DNA of 64,000 nt, from the NCBI GenBank assembly GCA_001593865.1, contig LUCB01000001.1, positions 23,670 through 87,669 on the forward strand, in the 5' to 3' direction. Under the pieces are notes generated by a model. That model ran no database searches, had not been told where the DNA came from, and saw only the letters and a program-made list of their open reading frames with translations. The position numbers and the translations under genes were made by a program. Origin of the DNA: Candidatus Bathyarchaeota archaeon B24 (GTDB taxonomy: Archaea > Thermoproteota > CALKCG01 > B24). This document shows, piece by piece, positions 2,982-52,812 of the stretch (its first letter is position 1; each line of letters starts with the position of its first letter).

Positions 2982-5900
2982 CTATCCAAGTCTGTTTATT
3001 CCTATGAGATACTTCCCGTCTTCCAAGTCCCACTCCTTACAATACTCCGTCTCAGGTATCTCCTCCGTCGTCAGTACAAGCCTCTTAGCCCTCACCTCAC
3101 CCGCTATGTAATCCCTCGTGCTCTCCAAGAGACTTAAAGACTCTGCGCTAGGGGCTTTAACGTAGACCTCTATGTACGCATCCACCGGAAGGTCCATCTC
3201 CTTACGCATATACTGCACCCTCCTGACGAGGTCTCTACCCAACCCCTCGGCCTGTAGAGCCCTGTCTATCCTCGTGTCTAGGTATAAAACCCCGTGGCTA
3301 AACTCGGTGTAGGCTAAACCTTCTCTAAGCATCTTCTCTACAGATACGTGCTCAGGTCTAACCTCGAAGACCTCTCCCTCGACCTCGAGCATGCACCTAC
3401 CCGATTCCCTGAGCTCTTTAAGCTGGTTCGAAGTCAGACTCTTTATAGCCTCCGCCACCAAGGGAGCTTTAGACCTAAACTCCTTACCCACAGCAGGCAT
3501 ATTAGGCGTGGCTTTCTCCACCCATAGCGTCTTCTCCTCGTCGGACTTGAGGAGCAAAACCTCTTTAACGTTAACTTGCTCCTTAAGCACGTCTGTCAAG
3601 GGTTTAAGCTTCTCGGCTAACGCTTCAGGAATTCTCAGATATAGCCTTTTGACCGGTTGTCTAAGCTTTAACCCAGCCCTCTGTCTGACTTTAGCAGAAG
3701 CTTCAACTATTTCCCTGGCGACCTCCATAGCCTCCTCGAGAGTCAGATTCTTCCACATAGGGTCGGGCTTAGGCCACTTGTTCATGTGTACGCTCTCGGG
3801 TAGATTCGGCTCCGCGGGTCTGAAGACGTGCTGGTAGATCTTCTCGGTTATGAACGGTATGATAGGCGCCGCGAGTATGAGAAACATCTTCAGCACGTTG
3901 TATAGAACGCTGTAGGACGCGAGTTTCTCAGGATCCTCCTCCTCTATCCACGTCTTACGGCGTATAAGCCTGATGTACCATCTACTCACGTCTTCGACCA
4001 TGAAATCTCTAAGCATCCTAACGGCTTCGTGGATATGGTAATTCTCGAAGCTCTCAGTAACGCTCTCGATTAAACGCTGCGTTCTGGAGAGAATCCATAG
4101 GTCTTCAGGCTTCATATGGCCCTTAACCTTCTCCAAGCTCCATTTCGATGGGTTAAACTTATCTAAATTCATGTAGGTCGATGCGAACACGTAAACGTTC
4201 CAAAGAATATTCATGAAAGACAAGGTCTCCTTAACACCTTTCCAAGAGAACCTCAGGTCTTCCCATAGGGTATGCTGAAGCTCGTAAAACCTTAGGATGT
4301 CTCTGCCGAACTTCTCTATAACCTCCTCCGGGGCTATGTAGTTGCCCCAAGACTTATGCATCTCTCTACCGGTTTCATCTAGCACGAATCCATGCATTGC
4401 CACAGACCTATAAGGCGCCGAGCCGAAAACCAGAATACCGCACGCCAGTAGCGAGTAGAACCATCCCCTTGTCTGGTCATGACCCTCGACCACGAAGTCT
4501 ACTGGATACCATTCCTTAAGCCCTTTATCGCTAGACGGGTATCCGAGCGACGCCCAGGACGCCGACCCGGAATCCATCCACACATCGACGACATCCAGAA
4601 CCCTACGCATCTCTCCTCCACACTCACATCTCAAAATGACCTTATCGACCCATGGCCTATGAAGCTCGACATCCTTCCCCTTAGACGCCTCGAGAAGCTC
4701 CCTCTTAGAGCCTATGACCCTACGCTTACCACATTTGCGGCATATCCATATCGGCAGTGGAACCCCCCAGTATCTCTGCCGGGAGATCACCCAGTCCGAT
4801 ATACCCCTAAGCCAGTTTCCGAACCTATTCTTACCTGCCCACTCAGGTATCCACTTCACCTTACTGTTCTCTTTAAGCAAAAGGTCTCTGAGCCTACTCA
4901 TCCTTATGACCCATTGCCTAGTGGCTCTTAGCAGCAGAGGGGTTTTGCATCTCCAACAGTGTGGATACCTGTGAACTACCGTTCCGCTGTAGAGTAGAAG
5001 CCCTTTCCTACGTAGATCCTCGATTATCAATGGGTCTGCGTCTTTCACGTAAAGACCTGCGTATTTACCGGCCTCATCCGTGAACCTACCTGCCTCGTCT
5101 ACAGGTGAAACCACGGGTAAACCGTAGCGCATACCTACCTCGAAGTCTTCCTCACCATGACCGGGAGCCGAATGGACTAGACCCGTTCCCTCGGTCAAGT
5201 ACACATACTCCTCAGATAGGACAACCTTATGGGCATCTTTAAGGTTCCTCTGAACCGGTACCTCTTCGGCTAACGGAGGCTTATACCGCAACCCCTCAAG
5301 CTTACTACCTTCAAACGTCTCCAAAATCTCATAGCTGAGACCAGCTTCTTCAAAAACCGGGTCGACCCGTTCCTCAGCCAGTATATAGACTTCGTCTCCG
5401 ACCTTAACCCTCGCATATCTATAATTCGGATGCGCCATGACGGCCACGTTAGCGGGTAGGGTCCAAGGCGTCGTAGTCCATATGAGGAGATACTCACCCT
5501 CTCTACCTTCAACCGGGAACTTCACGTATATCGACGGGTCCTCTACATCCCTATACTCCTGCGAAACCTCGTAACCGGCAGCTAAAGCGGTCTCACACCT
5601 GGGACACCAATGGGTAACCCTTAGCGTGTTCTCTAGTAGACCTAGCTCCTCAGCCCTCTTGATGACGAGCCACACGGCCTCTATGTATTCATCCTTGATC
5701 GTCATGTAGGGGTTTTCCCAATCCATCCAAACGCCTAGGTTCTTAAACTGCTTAGTGAGGATCCGGAGGTTTCTGAGGGCGAATTTTTTACACTCCTCGA
5801 CGAACTTATCTATGCCGATATGCTCCTCTATCTCCTTCTTGCTCCTTATTCCAAGGGACTTCTCGACCATAACCTCTATCGGTAGTCCATGCATATCGAA

Positions 5901-48252: not shown

Positions 48253-49335
48253 TTGGATATTAAGGAACTGAGGAAGCAGATAGATCGGATAGACTCTGAG
48301 GTTCTTAGGCTTCTAAAGGAGCGGGTTAAGATAGCTAAGGAGATTTTAAAAGTTAAAAGAGAGCTGAGCATGCCTCTTAGAGATATTGGACGTGAAAGGA
48401 GGATACTAGAACGTATAAGGGATGAAGCCGATAAACTTGGGCTTAACAAGACGATAGTGGAGACGATATTCAAAGAGATCATAGGATTATGCCTTTCGGC
48501 TCAGCATAGAATTAGAGTTGCATATCTCGGGCCTAGAGGCTCGTTCACCGAGGAGGCTGCCAAGAAGTTTTTCCATGGAGCTGAGATGGAGTACATACCT
48601 AAGCCATCGATACCCGAGGTGTTCAGAGGAGTTGTAGCAGGGGAGGTCGATATGGGGGTTGTGCCCGTAGAAAACTCGTTAGAGGGCTCAGTAAACCTCA
48701 CGCTAGACCTTCTCTTCGACACGCCTTTGAAAGTTTGTGGTGAAATCGAGCTTAAAGTTGAACATTGTTTACTGGCGAATCCAGGCTCTAGGGTCGAAGA
48801 TATACGGGTCATCTTCTCCCATCCCCAGGCCATAGCCCAATGTAGGCGGTTTATCGAAACTATGCTTCCACAGGTCGAGGTCGTCGAGGTCCAGAGCACG
48901 TCTAAAGCCGCCGAGGTGGTCAAAGGGTTAAGGGGTGCCGCGGCGATAGCGTCCGAGTTCACGGCGGATATCTATGGCTTAGAAGTACTAGCTAAATCGA
49001 TTCAAGACTATCACGACAACTATACGAGGTTCTTCGTCTTAAGCCCTGAGGACCATCCACCCACAGGTAACGACAAGACCTCTCTAATCTTCTCAGTCCC
49101 TGATAAGCCCGGCGCGCTATACGAGGCTTTAAAGCCGTTCGCAGCTAGAGGTATAAACCTGACTAAGATAGAGTCTAGACCAACCAGAGGTAAGCCTTGG
49201 GAATACGTCTTCTATATGGATATGGAGGGACATAGATTCGACGATGAAATCAAAGAAGCTATAGAGGAGCTTAAAGCGATCGCAAGCTTCGTTAAAGTTC
49301 TGGGAAGCTACCCGATGGCTAGGAAGAGCGATTAA
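48253..49335 (+). CDS. pheA: bifunctional chorismate mutase / prephenate dehydratase with ACT domain
   Basis: 360 aa. AroQ CM domain MDIKELRKQIDRIDSEVLRLLKERVKIAKEI, then the PDT domain RVAYLGPRGSFTEEAA, then ACT. Confidence 0.85.
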   Translation: MDIKELRKQIDRIDSEVLRLLKERVKIAKEILKVKRELSMPLRDIGRERRILERIRDEADKLGLNKTIVETIFKEIIGLCLSAQHRIRVAYLGPRGSFTEEAAKKFFHGAEMEYIPKPSIPEVFRGVVAGEVDMGVVPVENSLEGSVNLTLDLLFDTPLKVCGEIELKVEHCLLANPGSRVEDIRVIFSHPQAIAQCRRFIETMLPQVEVVEVQSTSKAAEVVKGLRGAAAIASEFTADIYGLEVLAKSIQDYHDNYTRFFVLSPEDHPPTGNDKTSLIFSVPDKPGALYEALKPFAARGINLTKIESRPTRGKPWEYVFYMDMEGHRFDDEIKEAIEELKAIASFVKVLGSYPMARKSD

Positions 49336-49422: not shown

Positions 49423-50652
49423 GTGCTTTACGTAGACGATGAGGTAGAGCCGGATTACGGTTTTACCGAGTACTTGAAAAGAGAGGATAAACCTGTCGTC
49501 TTCAATAGGGTTAAAGGGTATAGAGGTCTGAGGGTTGTGGGGAACCTATGCGCCTCGAGAAAGATGATGGCCAAGGCCTTAAACGTGCCCTATGATAAGC
49601 TTCACGATGTCTGGGTCGAGGCCTTGGAACATCCCAAGCCATACGGGTATACGGATTCGGCGCCTTTTATGGGGGAAAAATTCGAGAACCCGGAAATCTC
49701 AAGACATTTACCCTTTCCCCGGTTTTACAGAGGGCTTGAGAAACACTACGCTACAGGGACGATAGTATTGGCTAGAGACCCTGAGACCGGCAGGATGAAC
49801 GCATCCTTTCACAGACTTATGCTACTTGAGGATAATAGGCTGGCGATCAGACTCGTTCCAAGAGATTTATACAGGTTTTATATGGTTAACAAGGAGGCTG
49901 GTAGAGACACTAGGGTTGCTATAGTTTCAGGGGTTCATCCATCGATATGTATGGCCGCCGCTACGTCCTATCCGGACCTTAACGAGCTACAGTTAGCTAG
50001 GGTTTTCCATGAATTTGAATGCGTAGACTTGGACGGTTTAGACGTACCGGCGGAGGCTGAAGTCGTCATGCTCGGCAGAATCTTGAAAGACGTGGAGGTG
50101 AACGAGGGGCCCTTCGTAGATTTGACGGAAACTTTAGACATAGTCAGGCGTCAACCCGTCGTAGAGGTGGAGAGGCTTTACATGCGGAATGAGGCATTAT
50201 GGCATGTAATACTACCTGGTGGCCTGGAGCATAAGCATCTCATGGGTGTACCTCAGGAGGTTAGGATGCTTAGGATCGTTAGAAACACTGTACCCACCGT
50301 TAAGAGGATATACCTCACACCTGGTGGATGTTGCTGGCTCCACGCTGTGGTTTCGATCAGGAAGCTTCGTGAAGGTGATGGAAAGAACGCGGGATTAGCC
50401 GCCTTAGCAGCCCATCCGAGTTTGAAGATGGTTATAGTGGTGGACGACGACATAGACGTCGAAAACCCGTATGAGGTCGAATGGGCTTTAGCGACTAGAC
50501 TTCAACCGGATAAAGGCATCGTTGTGATCCCCGGCGCTAGGGGGTCGAGTCTAGACCCGTCTCAAGGTAAAAAGGGCCTTACAGCCAAGTGGATCATAGA
50601 TGCTACGATACCCTTGGAGATGAATAAGGGATCCTTCAGGAGGATCGTTTAA
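49423..50652 (+). CDS. UbiD-family decarboxylase; candidate trans-anhydromevalonate-5-phosphate decarboxylase of the archaeal modified mevalonate pathway
   Basis: 409 aa, UbiD-like fold, immediately upstream of the AcnX large and small subunit genes. In Aeropyrum-type archaea this gene context is the mevalonate route (established knowledge). Substrate assignment is by context. Confidence 0.6.
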   Translation: MLYVDDEVEPDYGFTEYLKREDKPVVFNRVKGYRGLRVVGNLCASRKMMAKALNVPYDKLHDVWVEALEHPKPYGYTDSAPFMGEKFENPEISRHLPFPRFYRGLEKHYATGTIVLARDPETGRMNASFHRLMLLEDNRLAIRLVPRDLYRFYMVNKEAGRDTRVAIVSGVHPSICMAAATSYPDLNELQLARVFHEFECVDLDGLDVPAEAEVVMLGRILKDVEVNEGPFVDLTETLDIVRRQPVVEVERLYMRNEALWHVILPGGLEHKHLMGVPQEVRMLRIVRNTVPTVKRIYLTPGGCCWLHAVVSIRKLREGDGKNAGLAALAAHPSLKMVIVVDDDIDVENPYEVEWALATRLQPDKGIVVIPGARGSSLDPSQGKKGLTAKWIIDATIPLEMNKGSFRRIV

Positions 50653-50654
50653 AC

Positions 50655-51851
50655 TTGTACTTAACCAGACATGAGGAGCGTATTCTCAAGGGTGAAGAGG
50701 GTTATGCTAGGCAGAAGGCTATGGAGATACTGGTAGCCTTAGGCGAGATCTATGAGGCGGATAGGCTTATACCCGTCTCTTCGGCTCAGATAGCCGGTGT
50801 CAGTTATACGTCCTTAGGGGACGACGGTATAGAATGGCTTGAGTCGTTAGAAGGAGCTCATGTAACGATACCTGCGGTGCTTAACCCAGCCGGCATGGAC
50901 CTTGAAAACTGGAGACGCATGGGAGTAGACCCTGAGTACGCTAGAAAGCAAATTAGGATCATAGAAGCGTATAAGAGGCTTGGTGTTAGACCATTATGCT
51001 CCTGTACTCCATACTTACTAGGTATGGTTCCTATGCTCGGTGAACATGTAGCTTGGTCCGAGTCCTCAGCCGTGTGCTACGCTAACTCCGTCTTAGGAGC
51101 TAGGACGAACCGAGAGGGAGGGCCATCAGCCTTAGCGTCGGCGATAATAGGTAAAACGCCTAATTATGGATACCACCTTGACGAAAATCGTAAAGCTGGT
51201 TTAATCATAGAAGTCGAGGTTGAACTTAAGACGATAAGTGATTATAGTGCCTTAGGATATTGGGCTGGTAAGCTAGCTGAGTCTAACGTACCGTATTTCA
51301 AAGGCTTGAAGGGTGTGGATAGCGTACGTTTGAAAGCTCTGGGTGCCGGCTTAGGTGCCGGGGGTAGCGTAGCTTTATATCACGTCGAAGGTGTTACACC
51401 TGAGCATAAAACGGCGCTGGTAGAGAGGGTTGAGAGACATCAGTTCGGAGAGGTTGAACTTGGAGAAGTGTATACGAACTACTTTAAGCCGATACCCGAC
51501 CGTGTCGACTTAGCGGCTATAGGATGCCCTCATGCGTCTCTCGATGAGGTTAAGGAAGTCGCCGAACTCGTGAAGGGTAGACGTATCAAAGACGATTCTA
51601 GGCTTTGGGTCTTCACCTCGATAGCCGTCAAGAGGATGGCCGAGAGGTGCGGATACCTAGATATCATAAGAGCCGCTGGGGGGGAAGTTTACGCAGACGG
51701 CTGTATGGCCTTAGCTCCGCTTAAAGACATGGGTATAGAGAGAGTCGCGGTAAACAGCTCTAAAGCCGCCTTTTACACTCGTCTTTTGGCTAAGGTTGAT
51801 GCGTACTTCGGAGATCTTAGGCAGTGTATAGAATCGGTTATAGGGAGGTGA
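50655..51851 (+). CDS. aconitase X (AcnX, DUF521) large subunit; candidate phosphomevalonate dehydratase large subunit
   Basis: 398 aa, collinear with the DUF521/AcnX catalytic domain. Followed in the same frame by the DUF126 small subunit. Confidence 0.75.
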   Translation: MYLTRHEERILKGEEGYARQKAMEILVALGEIYEADRLIPVSSAQIAGVSYTSLGDDGIEWLESLEGAHVTIPAVLNPAGMDLENWRRMGVDPEYARKQIRIIEAYKRLGVRPLCSCTPYLLGMVPMLGEHVAWSESSAVCYANSVLGARTNREGGPSALASAIIGKTPNYGYHLDENRKAGLIIEVEVELKTISDYSALGYWAGKLAESNVPYFKGLKGVDSVRLKALGAGLGAGGSVALYHVEGVTPEHKTALVERVERHQFGEVELGEVYTNYFKPIPDRVDLAAIGCPHASLDEVKEVAELVKGRRIKDDSRLWVFTSIAVKRMAERCGYLDIIRAAGGEVYADGCMALAPLKDMGIERVAVNSSKAAFYTRLLAKVDAYFGDLRQCIESVIGR

Positions 51852-51908
51852 GGTCTTACGATTATCCGGTGTAGACGCATATCCGGTGGATACGGTGAAG
51901 GCTATGCT

Positions 51909-52253
51909 TTGGTCTCCCCTGAGCCGATAAGCTTCTTCGGTCAAGTTGATAGGTCCACAGGGGTTATATGCGACGAGAAGCATCCTCTTTACGGAGAGAG
52001 CGTATCGGGTAAAGTTCTGATACTCCCTCGGGGTAAGGGCTCGACCGTCGGATCTTATGTCTTATACGGTCTAGCTAAGAGAGGTAAGGCCCCCTCAGCC
52101 ATAATATGCCTAGAGGCTGAACCTATTATAGCGGTTGGGGCGATAATAGCGGGTATACCTATGGTGGATAAGCCTGAGAGCTACGTTTTCAAAACAGGTA
52201 TGTTCGTCAAAGTATACGCGGATAGGGGCGTCATAGAAGTCCCGGGTCTTTAA
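51909..52253 (+). CDS. AcnX small subunit (DUF126); conserved N-terminus extends upstream to the acnX-large TGA with no canonical start codon
   Basis: The ORF track gives a TTG start at 51909 (114 aa). The 19 codons from 51852 to 51908 (GLTIIRCRRISGGYGEGYA) continue the DUF126 N-terminal consensus (...GEAEGEVLVS.EPISF). They lie in the same frame as the large subunit, separated by one TGA (51849-51851). No ATG/GTG/TTG occurs in between. A GGAGGTGA sits at 51844-51851. Confidence 0.65.
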   Translation: MVSPEPISFFGQVDRSTGVICDEKHPLYGESVSGKVLILPRGKGSTVGSYVLYGLAKRGKAPSAIICLEAEPIIAVGAIIAGIPMVDKPESYVFKTGMFVKVYADRGVIEVPGL

Positions 52254-52812
52254 CCTGGTTTTCGAGAGCCTTCACTATCCTAGCTACCGTTTCATCTTGC
52301 TGCTTCAAATCTAAGCCGTAGAAGGCTACGTCTAAACCCTTGGCTTTCAGCATTTTCTCGAGCATCTCGATGAATACTCCCTTTCCCGGAATCCGGATGC
52401 TTCCAACAGCTGTACGTTTGGATGTCGTGTAGACTCCGCATGTCGGAGAGCCTTCTACGCCTATTACCGCTAGAACCCTCAGTTTTGGATCGGCCGAAAA
52501 CCTTGTAAAAGCCGTTAGGTCCTCCACGGCCTTTTCCGCCAGCTTCCTACAGTGGTCTGTAAACCCAGGTAGACTCATATACTCCTCCTTCGTCATGGGT
52601 TTCCTAGGATTACCTAGAAAACCGAATTCAGGACATGGAAGCTGGTAAAGACCGATTCCCAAGGGTTTAAGTCTTTCGAGAAATTTGACTATGAACCCCT
52701 CGACCCATCCACCTGAACCTTTCCAGAACCATCGCGTAGTTTGGTTAAGTATACAGTGGGAAACGGCCACTACATAGCCTACATATGGAGCACCGTTCAA
52801 CAGAGACCCCAA
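52231..52812 (-). CDS. DUF523 (TudS-like) family protein, tentative
   Basis: 193 aa. Cys-containing N-terminal block YVVAVSHCILNQTTRW, reminiscent of the DUF523/TudS cluster-binding region. Low-confidence family call. Confidence 0.35.
   Translation of the reverse strand: MGSLLNGAPYVGYVVAVSHCILNQTTRWFWKGSGGWVEGFIVKFLERLKPLGIGLYQLPCPEFGFLGNPRKPMTKEEYMSLPGFTDHCRKLAEKAVEDLTAFTRFSADPKLRVLAVIGVEGSPTCGVYTTSKRTAVGSIRIPGKGVFIEMLEKMLKAKGLDVAFYGLDLKQQDETVARIVKALENQVKDPGLL

Follow-up and report, generated by a model that had tools for sequence, protein, structure and literature searches.

AcnX enzymes have been described both as split and as fused proteins. Those of type II are split. Examples are TK1248-TK1249 of Thermococcus kodakarensis (PDB 7CNR/7CNS) and APE_2087.1/APE_2089 of Aeropyrum pernix, where separate genes for a large (PF04412) and a small (PF01989) subunit are adjacent and tightly coupled, with a UbiD-family decarboxylase gene adjoining. 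Here, we examine a gene pair of this kind in the uncultured Candidatus Bathyarchaeota archaeon B24, in which no canonical start codon precedes the conserved N-terminal codons of the small subunit. The DNA analysed is a 64-kb (64,000 nucleotide, nt) stretch of contig LUCB01000001.1, which we call the window. Positions are counted from its first letter and, unless stated otherwise, features lie on the forward (+) strand. The large subunit gene (phosphomevalonate dehydratase, PMDh, large subunit; 398 amino acids, aa) occupies 50655..51851, with a TTG start and a TGA stop, and matches PF04412 over its full length (E = 1.2e-153). Read at full length, the small subunit gene (swivel domain, DUF126) occupies 51858..52253, as 131 codons and a TAA stop. 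It matches PF01989 with E = 1.3e-35, scoring 121.5 bits (gathering score 27) over all 80 profile positions (1-80). All sequence tests place the locus in the split AcnX type II/PMDh family, the enzyme activity itself being predicted. It departs from the described members in the start of the small subunit, which here appears to be ACG, not ATG, GTG or TTG.

The fused AcnX of type I, exemplified by the Agrobacterium tumefaciens protein (PDB 7CNP), contains the same two modules. It differs in having a small-then-large order, a different function, and a bacterial or fungal origin.

Two described systems resemble the locus in how translation may begin. First, the E. coli genes infC and pcnB have AUU starts. 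As in the window, the protein is conserved, the only plausible start is a one-base variant of AUG, and a Shine-Dalgarno (SD) sequence lies upstream. The features that mark such near-cognate starts are seen here: there is no canonical start upstream, the codon occupies the orthologous start position, and the SD sequence is at functional spacing (for an assumed anti-SD sequence). Unlike infC and pcnB, the window gene belongs to an archaeon, with eukaryote-like initiation factors. Furthermore, ACG is a second-position mismatch and a proposed start, and no autoregulatory logic is evident. Second, the termination-reinitiation pairs of Huber et al. (2019, 2023) are also co-directional genes for two subunits of a 1:1 complex. 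The window distance of +6 nt is within their range of -8 to +10 nt, and the SD sequence is likewise inside the upstream gene. Those pairs use canonical starts, whereas the candidate here is ACG or AUU. On balance, the probable picture is of an ordinary AcnX/PMDh pair of the split type (II), in which ATG was replaced by ACG and the change fixed, with a separate full-length small subunit made by near-cognate initiation.

The start position of the small subunit gene

The large subunit frame runs on past its TGA stop codon (51849..51851) as GLTIIRCRRISGGYGEGYALVSPEPISF. The small subunit is read in the same frame, and the coordinates given in an earlier note on this DNA are confirmed. The same note had remarked that no ATG, GTG or TTG occurs before the TTG at 51909. 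This is correct for all 19 codons from 51852 to 51908. By our own arithmetic, the chance of 19 codons without a canonical start is about (61/64)^19 = 0.4. A start-free run of this length is therefore not improbable alone, and its significance comes from homology.

For the small subunit, 3737 homologues were retrieved by a protein search. The closest full-length homologues are from Bathyarchaeia, have 129-132 aa, and start MIIRCRRISxGYGEGYALVSPEP (P0001, P0002, P0007, and P0008). The window protein is 89% identical to the first of these (131 aa, beginning MIIRCRRIS), and a further cluster, P0003, is 114 aa long and begins at TTG. At the level of junction DNA, the ACG at 51858..51860 aligns column for column with the ATG of four syntenic loci (L003-L006). 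Directly before the IIRC codons, at the homologous position, there is ATG in L009, TTG in L095 and L096, and GTG in L097 and L098. For L099 and L100, an ATG overlaps the large subunit stop codon, so that the genes overlap by 4 nt. The next two codons in the window, ATT ATC (51861..51866), encode Ile-Ile in all relatives. They are themselves near-cognate and provide alternative initiation sites.

Since ATG, TTG, GTG, and ACG are found at one homologous position, the initiation codon of this gene has drifted among variants of AUG. Similarly, the canonical starts of relatives mark the position of the ACG as an initiation site that tolerates several such variants. On the junction alignment, the window ACG is a single T-to-C transition from an ancestral ATG, and we take both the substitution and its fixation as established by these comparisons. 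Comparing orthologous junctions had been suggested in the earlier note, and the outcome is clear: relatives are split, keep the TGA, and have ATG, GTG or TTG where the window has ACG.

A wider survey used the large subunit to scan GTDB genomes. The window's own species was missing from the results (best match 68%), which served as a survey of junction architecture. At about 70 loci from other archaeal species, a canonical start is 1-4 codons before a conserved xLKGRxIxxGxAEGEALV segment. Usually, this start overlaps the large subunit stop codon by 4 or 10 nt. The window thus differs from most archaea in its stop-to-start arrangement, which is +6 nt rather than an overlap of -4 or -10 nt.

Current database entries for the lineage use two other starts. 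The protein read from TTG in the window is identical to GenBank KYH38104.1 (114 aa), from Ca. Bathyarchaeota archaeon B24. In two sister metagenome-assembled genomes (MAGs), the protein was started at ATT, giving MIRCRR... and 130 aa (RLI24217.1 and MCD6444174.1).

The ACG is not peculiar to one assembly. Ten loci (the window, L001, L002, L007, and L089-L094), which we call the ACG lineage, all read TGA-N6-ACG ATT ATC. They represent at least six junction haplotypes, which differ at nearby single-nucleotide polymorphisms. The sources are three separate GenBank MAG assemblies (B24, GCA_003662455.1, and GCA_021161255.1), together with ENA, Logan, and JGI assemblies. The samples behind them (runs and assemblies such as SRR7051320, SRR6823442, and ERZ27248349) are probably hydrothermal sediments of the Guaymas type. 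A pattern scan of metagenomes gave two contigs, one of them new (L007, with ACG). Over 4.5 kb, members of the lineage are 97-99% identical and fall into four sequence groups, while identity to the ATG-bearing sister L003 is 87% and to L006 77%. The ACG strain L001 and the ATG sister-species locus L005 (87% identical) both derive from ERZ27248349, so the two alleles coexist in one community.

The earlier note had listed a base-call error among its options. A sequencing or assembly error, either making the TGA or destroying an ATG, is suggested by nothing beyond the oddity itself. Because the same TGA and ACG are present in ten concordant assemblies, from different projects and with at least six haplotypes, base-call error is ruled out. 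We give this explanation almost no weight and regard it as already refuted. That the ACG is real, evolutionarily fixed, and confined to one species-level lineage is well supported by the assemblies compared.

A different way to account for the genomic ACG is that C-to-U editing of the mRNA restores AUG. Editing of this type creates AUG from ACG in plant organelles, and ACG is exactly the codon that it turns into a start codon. We found no supporting feature at the locus and, to our knowledge, no C-to-U editing of mRNA is known in archaea. Hence, we view editing as very improbable.

N-terminal codons, stop codon, and spacer

Nearly all homologues retrieved have the segment xxKCRxIxxGxxEGxALVS after the start codon; the exceptions are P0003 and P0058. 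In the window, residues IIRCRRISGGYGEGYA belong to this N-terminal segment and are encoded upstream of the TTG at 51909..51911. Small subunit residues 4-128 align with TK1248 of Thermococcus (E = 5.5e-38), and the alignment begins at Thermococcus residue 5. The N-terminal region of TkAcnX forms an extra barrel strand, beta1 (PMC8184944). The conserved N-terminus described in the earlier note is apparent in homologues and in the NCBIfam equivalog NF003046, which covers it, but not in the Pfam swivel-domain model, which begins only at the extension's residue 26, past the TTG. Against NF003046, the 131-aa reading scores 173.3 bits, above the cut-off of 163, and spans profile positions 3-129 of 132. 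The 114-aa reading from TTG scores 155.7 bits, below the cut-off, and spans positions 19-129, with positions 1-18 missing. Hence, the note was right that a TTG start would remove conserved residues.

We then consider the 17 codons from ACG to TTG. The 11 differences from L006 are all synonymous (0 non-synonymous), and L003 differs by 7 synonymous changes and 1 non-synonymous change. Of the changes found in the ACG lineage alone, 5 of 5 are synonymous, and no strain has an indel or stop codon in this segment. Conversely, the TTG at 51909 is not kept. Strain L090 has CTG at this place, L003 has TTA, and L006 has CTA, as is normal for an ordinary Leu codon. Most likely, the TTG is such an internal Leu codon.

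These observations bear on whether the small subunit instead starts at TTG 51909, as annotated in KYH38104.1, and works without its first 17 residues. The TTG is the first canonical start, a weak SD-like GGTGA (-8.2 kcal/mol) is 10 nt upstream, and the Pfam swivel model begins downstream. Set against this are the CTG of L090 and the TTA or CTA of relatives, and the 17 upstream codons, which are intact and have changed almost only synonymously. In addition, the shortened protein falls below the NCBIfam equivalog cut-off, and lacks a segment that nearly all surveyed homologues keep and that forms barrel strands in the solved structure. We rejected TTG 51909 as the main start given the CTG in L090, and a start there is quite unlikely. 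The earlier note had allowed that orthologues might truly begin at the TTG-equivalent position; the CTG, TTA, and CTA codons found there contradict this. Taken together, the lack of TTG conservation, the constrained codons, the NF003046 scores, and the retention of the segment in other archaea indicate that the small subunit very probably begins at or beside 51858.

Variation in the remainder of the gene can also be examined. Within the ACG lineage, variable sites outside the N-terminal codons number 3, 2, and 18 at the first, second, and third codon positions. This third-position bias argues that the small subunit gene stayed functional after the ATG was lost. The opposing possibility is that the ATG-to-ACG change crippled expression, leaving a decaying or hypomorphic gene whose function is dispensable or supplied from elsewhere in the genome. 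Such an outcome would fit the very inefficient near-cognate initiation seen in E. coli, and the 64 kb inspected are only part of the genome. It is at odds with the third-position bias of variation arising after the mutation, and with the absence of indels and stop codons from ten strains. Moreover, the window contains no second copy of the small subunit gene, and ACG has become fixed in a population that has diversified, with an ATG sister species co-occurring (L001 and L005 in ERZ27248349). We judge decay to be an unlikely explanation.

All ten ACG-lineage loci keep the TGA, as does every relative examined with ATG, GTG or TTG at the homologous position. A reassigned TGA was considered and rejected, since 15 of the window's 52 crude open reading frames (ORFs), and proteins of family length, end at this codon. 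Between the stop codon and the ancestral start position is a 6-nt spacer (GGTCTT; 51852..51857). Its sequence is GGTCTT or AGTCTT within the ACG lineage, and GACCGT or GACCGC in ATG relatives. Consequently, the 'residues' that it would encode are not conserved (GL, SL or DR), and the base after TGA is either G or A. The spacer is 6 nt long in the window clade, L003, and L006. In L009 and L095-L098 it is 5 nt, so that the genes are out of frame. Hence, the in-frame relation of the two subunits results from a 6-nt spacer that was already there in the ATG-bearing L003 and L006. Among orthologues the relation is not conserved, the genes being separated by 6 nt or 5 nt, or overlapping by 4 nt.

Domain order is informative with respect to fusion. 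Fused type I AcnX is a single polypeptide with the order 4-linker-1-2-3, so that the swivel domain is N-terminal (PMC8184944). At the window locus, the order is large (domains 1-2-3), conserved TGA, then small (domain 4). In keeping with this, the small subunit maps to positions 4-94 of the fused-enzyme profile NF051439 and the large subunit to 146-543. In the alignment with PDB 7CNP, query residues 5-105 fall on residues 23-122 of 579. The earlier note had seen in the locus an intermediate between fused and split AcnX. Because natural fused AcnX has the reverse domain order to that of a read-through product, this does not hold. A recent fusion or split, which the note had also raised, is rejected given the TGA of every relative examined, the spacer, which is 6 nt in ATG relatives too and 5 nt in the next relatives, and the opposite domain order of fused AcnX.

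Read-through or recoding of the TGA, which would join the large and small subunits in one polypeptide of about 530 aa, was the remaining option for a joined product. Loss of the ATG would then have been tolerated because the spacer keeps the frame. The two ORFs are indeed in frame across a single TGA, and the aconitase superfamily includes proteins with the order 1-2-3-linker-4, such as mitochondrial aconitase (PMC8184944). However, the joint between domains 3 and 4 of mitochondrial aconitase needs a long linker (PMC8184944), and here there would be 3 residues. The in-frame spacer is also older than the loss of ATG, given the TGA, 6 nt, and ATG of L003 and L006, and is replaced by 5 nt in the next relatives. 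The product would be large-then-small, opposite to natural AcnX fusions. Neither the base after TGA nor the spacer residues are conserved, and TGA is an ordinary stop codon in the window. No Rfam family, and hence no recoding RNA element, was detected at gathering score anywhere in the 64-kb window. Finally, a strong and well-spaced SD sequence, for which read-through has no need, is retained. On this evidence read-through is improbable.

Ribosome recruitment and proposed near-cognate initiation

An SD-like core, GGAGGTGA, is located at 51844..51851, where the large subunit gene ends, and overlaps its final codons and its stop. It is an exact 8-nt complement of a typical archaeal 16S 3' tail, which is assumed rather than taken from this genome, and the calculated duplex has an energy of -14.0 kcal/mol. 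Note that an Rfam scan detected no 16S gene in the 64-kb window; hence, the anti-SD sequence had to be assumed. The core is spaced by 6 nt from ACG, 9 nt from ATT, and 12 nt from ATC. In L001, L002, and L007 the core is 7 nt (GAGGTGA, -11.7 kcal/mol). Relatives with ATG, GTG or TTG starts have cores of just 4-5 nt, with energies between -6.1 and -11.3 kcal/mol; the L003 version is GGAGGAGTGA. The weakest start codon is thus paired with the strongest SD sequence, which is suggestive of compensation.

Initiation at a rare codon had been proposed in the earlier note, with ATT 51861 or ATC 51864 as candidates. As a mechanism, this is the best option that remains. The note passed over the ACG at 51858..51860, which is the codon that matches the start codon of relatives; neither of the two codons that follow does. 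In the proposed scheme, a ribosome would be held by the strong SD sequence GGAGGTGA, or would just have terminated at the TGA 6 nt upstream, or both. Initiator Met-tRNA would then be placed on a near-cognate codon. The candidates for this codon are ACG 51858, which keeps the P-site in its ancestral register, and the two codons next to it, AUU 51861 and AUC 51864. The product would be a separate small subunit of about 131 aa. Initiation within 51858-51866, which of the three codons serves, and the offsetting of a weak codon by a stronger SD sequence are all points that we infer.

Published work makes this scheme plausible in several respects. In Haloferax and E. coli, termination-reinitiation works over a range of stop-to-start distances that takes in the 6 nt seen here, and genes coupled in this way are enriched for those that encode parts of heteromeric complexes (PMC10666635). 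PMDh has its two subunits in a 1:1 ratio (PMC10040528). In E. coli, GFP initiated at ACG carries an N-terminal Met (10.1101/063800). Ribosome profiling in Haloferax places about 30% of putative alternative initiation sites at near-cognate codons (PMC7261190). We found no documented case of a natural ACG start in archaea in the literature searched, which was a limited set and offers absence of evidence only.

Several points weigh against near-cognate initiation as we propose it. In E. coli, ACG is in the class of codons that initiate at about 0.1-1% of the AUG level, and AUU and AUC reach 1-2% (10.1101/063800). Sulfolobus aIF1 discriminates against AUU in vitro (PMC4705826). Since the enzyme is a 1:1 heteromer (PMC10040528), initiation as weak as this could leave the small subunit limiting. 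The SD argument depends on one evolutionary event and an assumed anti-SD sequence. With regard to constraint, there are few changes within the lineage in the 17 N-terminal codons (2 synonymous and 1 non-synonymous), and the synonymous changes on the stem could for the most part be older than the loss of ATG. For these codons to be physiologically adequate, ACG alone or the ACG-AUU-AUC cluster would have to supply a subunit of a probably essential enzyme of Bathyarchaeia. We put this forward only tentatively, as a possibility that we think somewhat more likely to fail than to hold.

Gene cluster, other lineages, and implications

Upstream of the AcnX genes, at 49423..50652, is a UbiD-family decarboxylase gene with a GTG start. 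The encoded protein matches Pfam UbiD_N, UbiD, and UbiD_C, and NCBIfam TIGR00148 with 336 bits. It is a putative anhydromevalonate-phosphate decarboxylase, a role assigned by adjacency to AcnX and the published pathway (PMC10040528). The order UbiD-like, AcnX large, AcnX small is syntenic in relatives, and the cluster fits the archaeal modified mevalonate pathway (PMC10040528). Note that the association of UbiD with this pathway was tested at the level of family membership. The GTG start of the UbiD gene is kept in the window clade and L003. The TTG start of the large subunit is 2 nt past the UbiD stop codon and is kept in the window clade, L003, and L006. Read with ACG for the small subunit, the cluster has non-ATG starts throughout (GTG, TTG, and ACG). 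In the window as a whole, TTG is the most upstream canonical start of 24 of the 52 ORFs, although this is a biased count from a crude ORF scan.

Directly upstream of the mevalonate-pathway cluster, at 48253-49335, is a gene for a bifunctional chorismate mutase / prephenate dehydratase, and this synteny is also kept. Its domains (CM_2, PDT, and ACT) are taken from Pfam matches of syntenic loci. On the other side, a convergent gene on the reverse (-) strand (52231..52812) weakly resembles PF04463, the 2-thiouracil desulfurase family, scoring 29.8 bits in Pfam against a gathering score of 34.7. It shares 23 nt (52231-52253) with the 3' end of the small subunit gene, and an overlap is also called in all relatives. 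The convergent gene is called at 189-207 aa in the window and other strains. In L001 (3323-3670) and L002 (2067-2414) the call is just 115 aa, with no Pfam match, which may reflect disruption or a different start call. A tRNA scan of the window gave no match.

Similar oddities occur elsewhere in Bathyarchaeota. In two MAGs (GCA_018396595.1 and GCA_018396395.1; loci L101 and L102, positions 1447-1503), no canonical start precedes the conserved N-terminus of the AcnX small subunit. In frame after the TAG at 1447 comes ERITIVVRLKCRRISKG, and next the called ATG at 1501 (MAEGLALVSS..., 118 aa, P0058), with no ATG, GTG or TTG between. Candidate starts are ATC 1462, which is 9 nt past AGGAG, and CTG 1474, in alignment with the Met of homologue P0010. 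The large and small subunit genes are 118 nt apart at these loci. This second, independent lineage hints that tolerance of non-canonical starts may be general in this class. A different case is L073 (CAWDBB010000004.1, about 4190-4433), another Bathyarchaeota MAG, where the small subunit match does not begin until query residue 46, and the N-terminal region expected there translates out of frame. The probable cause is a frameshift, or else an error of assembly, in this MAG. At eleven loci from Methanobacterium/Methanobacteriaceae (L012, L014, L015, L017, L021, L023, L024, L030, L031, L032, and L035), there was no small subunit match within 3 kb of the large subunit. Hence, the AcnX subunit genes are not adjacent in those Methanobacteriaceae.

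The locus reveals no new enzyme architecture, and the phenomenon is that of near-cognate start codons, which are known. One consequence concerns annotation. Gene callers either shorten the protein to 114 aa (KYH38104.1) or start it at ATT (RLI24217.1 and MCD6444174.1) and, since Table 11 does not list ACG as an initiator, it will not be put forward by any standard caller. A second concerns the stringency of start codon selection in archaea, which is poorly characterised. The natural series of ATG, GTG, TTG, and ACG at one codon, accompanied by an apparently co-evolving SD sequence, is well suited to its measurement. If confirmed, the window locus would be a case of natural, population-fixed near-cognate initiation in an archaeon, in a gene for isoprenoid lipid synthesis whose product is needed at a 1:1 ratio. 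Should initiation at these codons prove physiologically adequate, archaeal ribosomes that are led by an SD sequence, or are reinitiating, would accept second- and third-position near-cognate codons far better than those of E. coli, and a lengthened SD sequence could compensate for a weak start codon.

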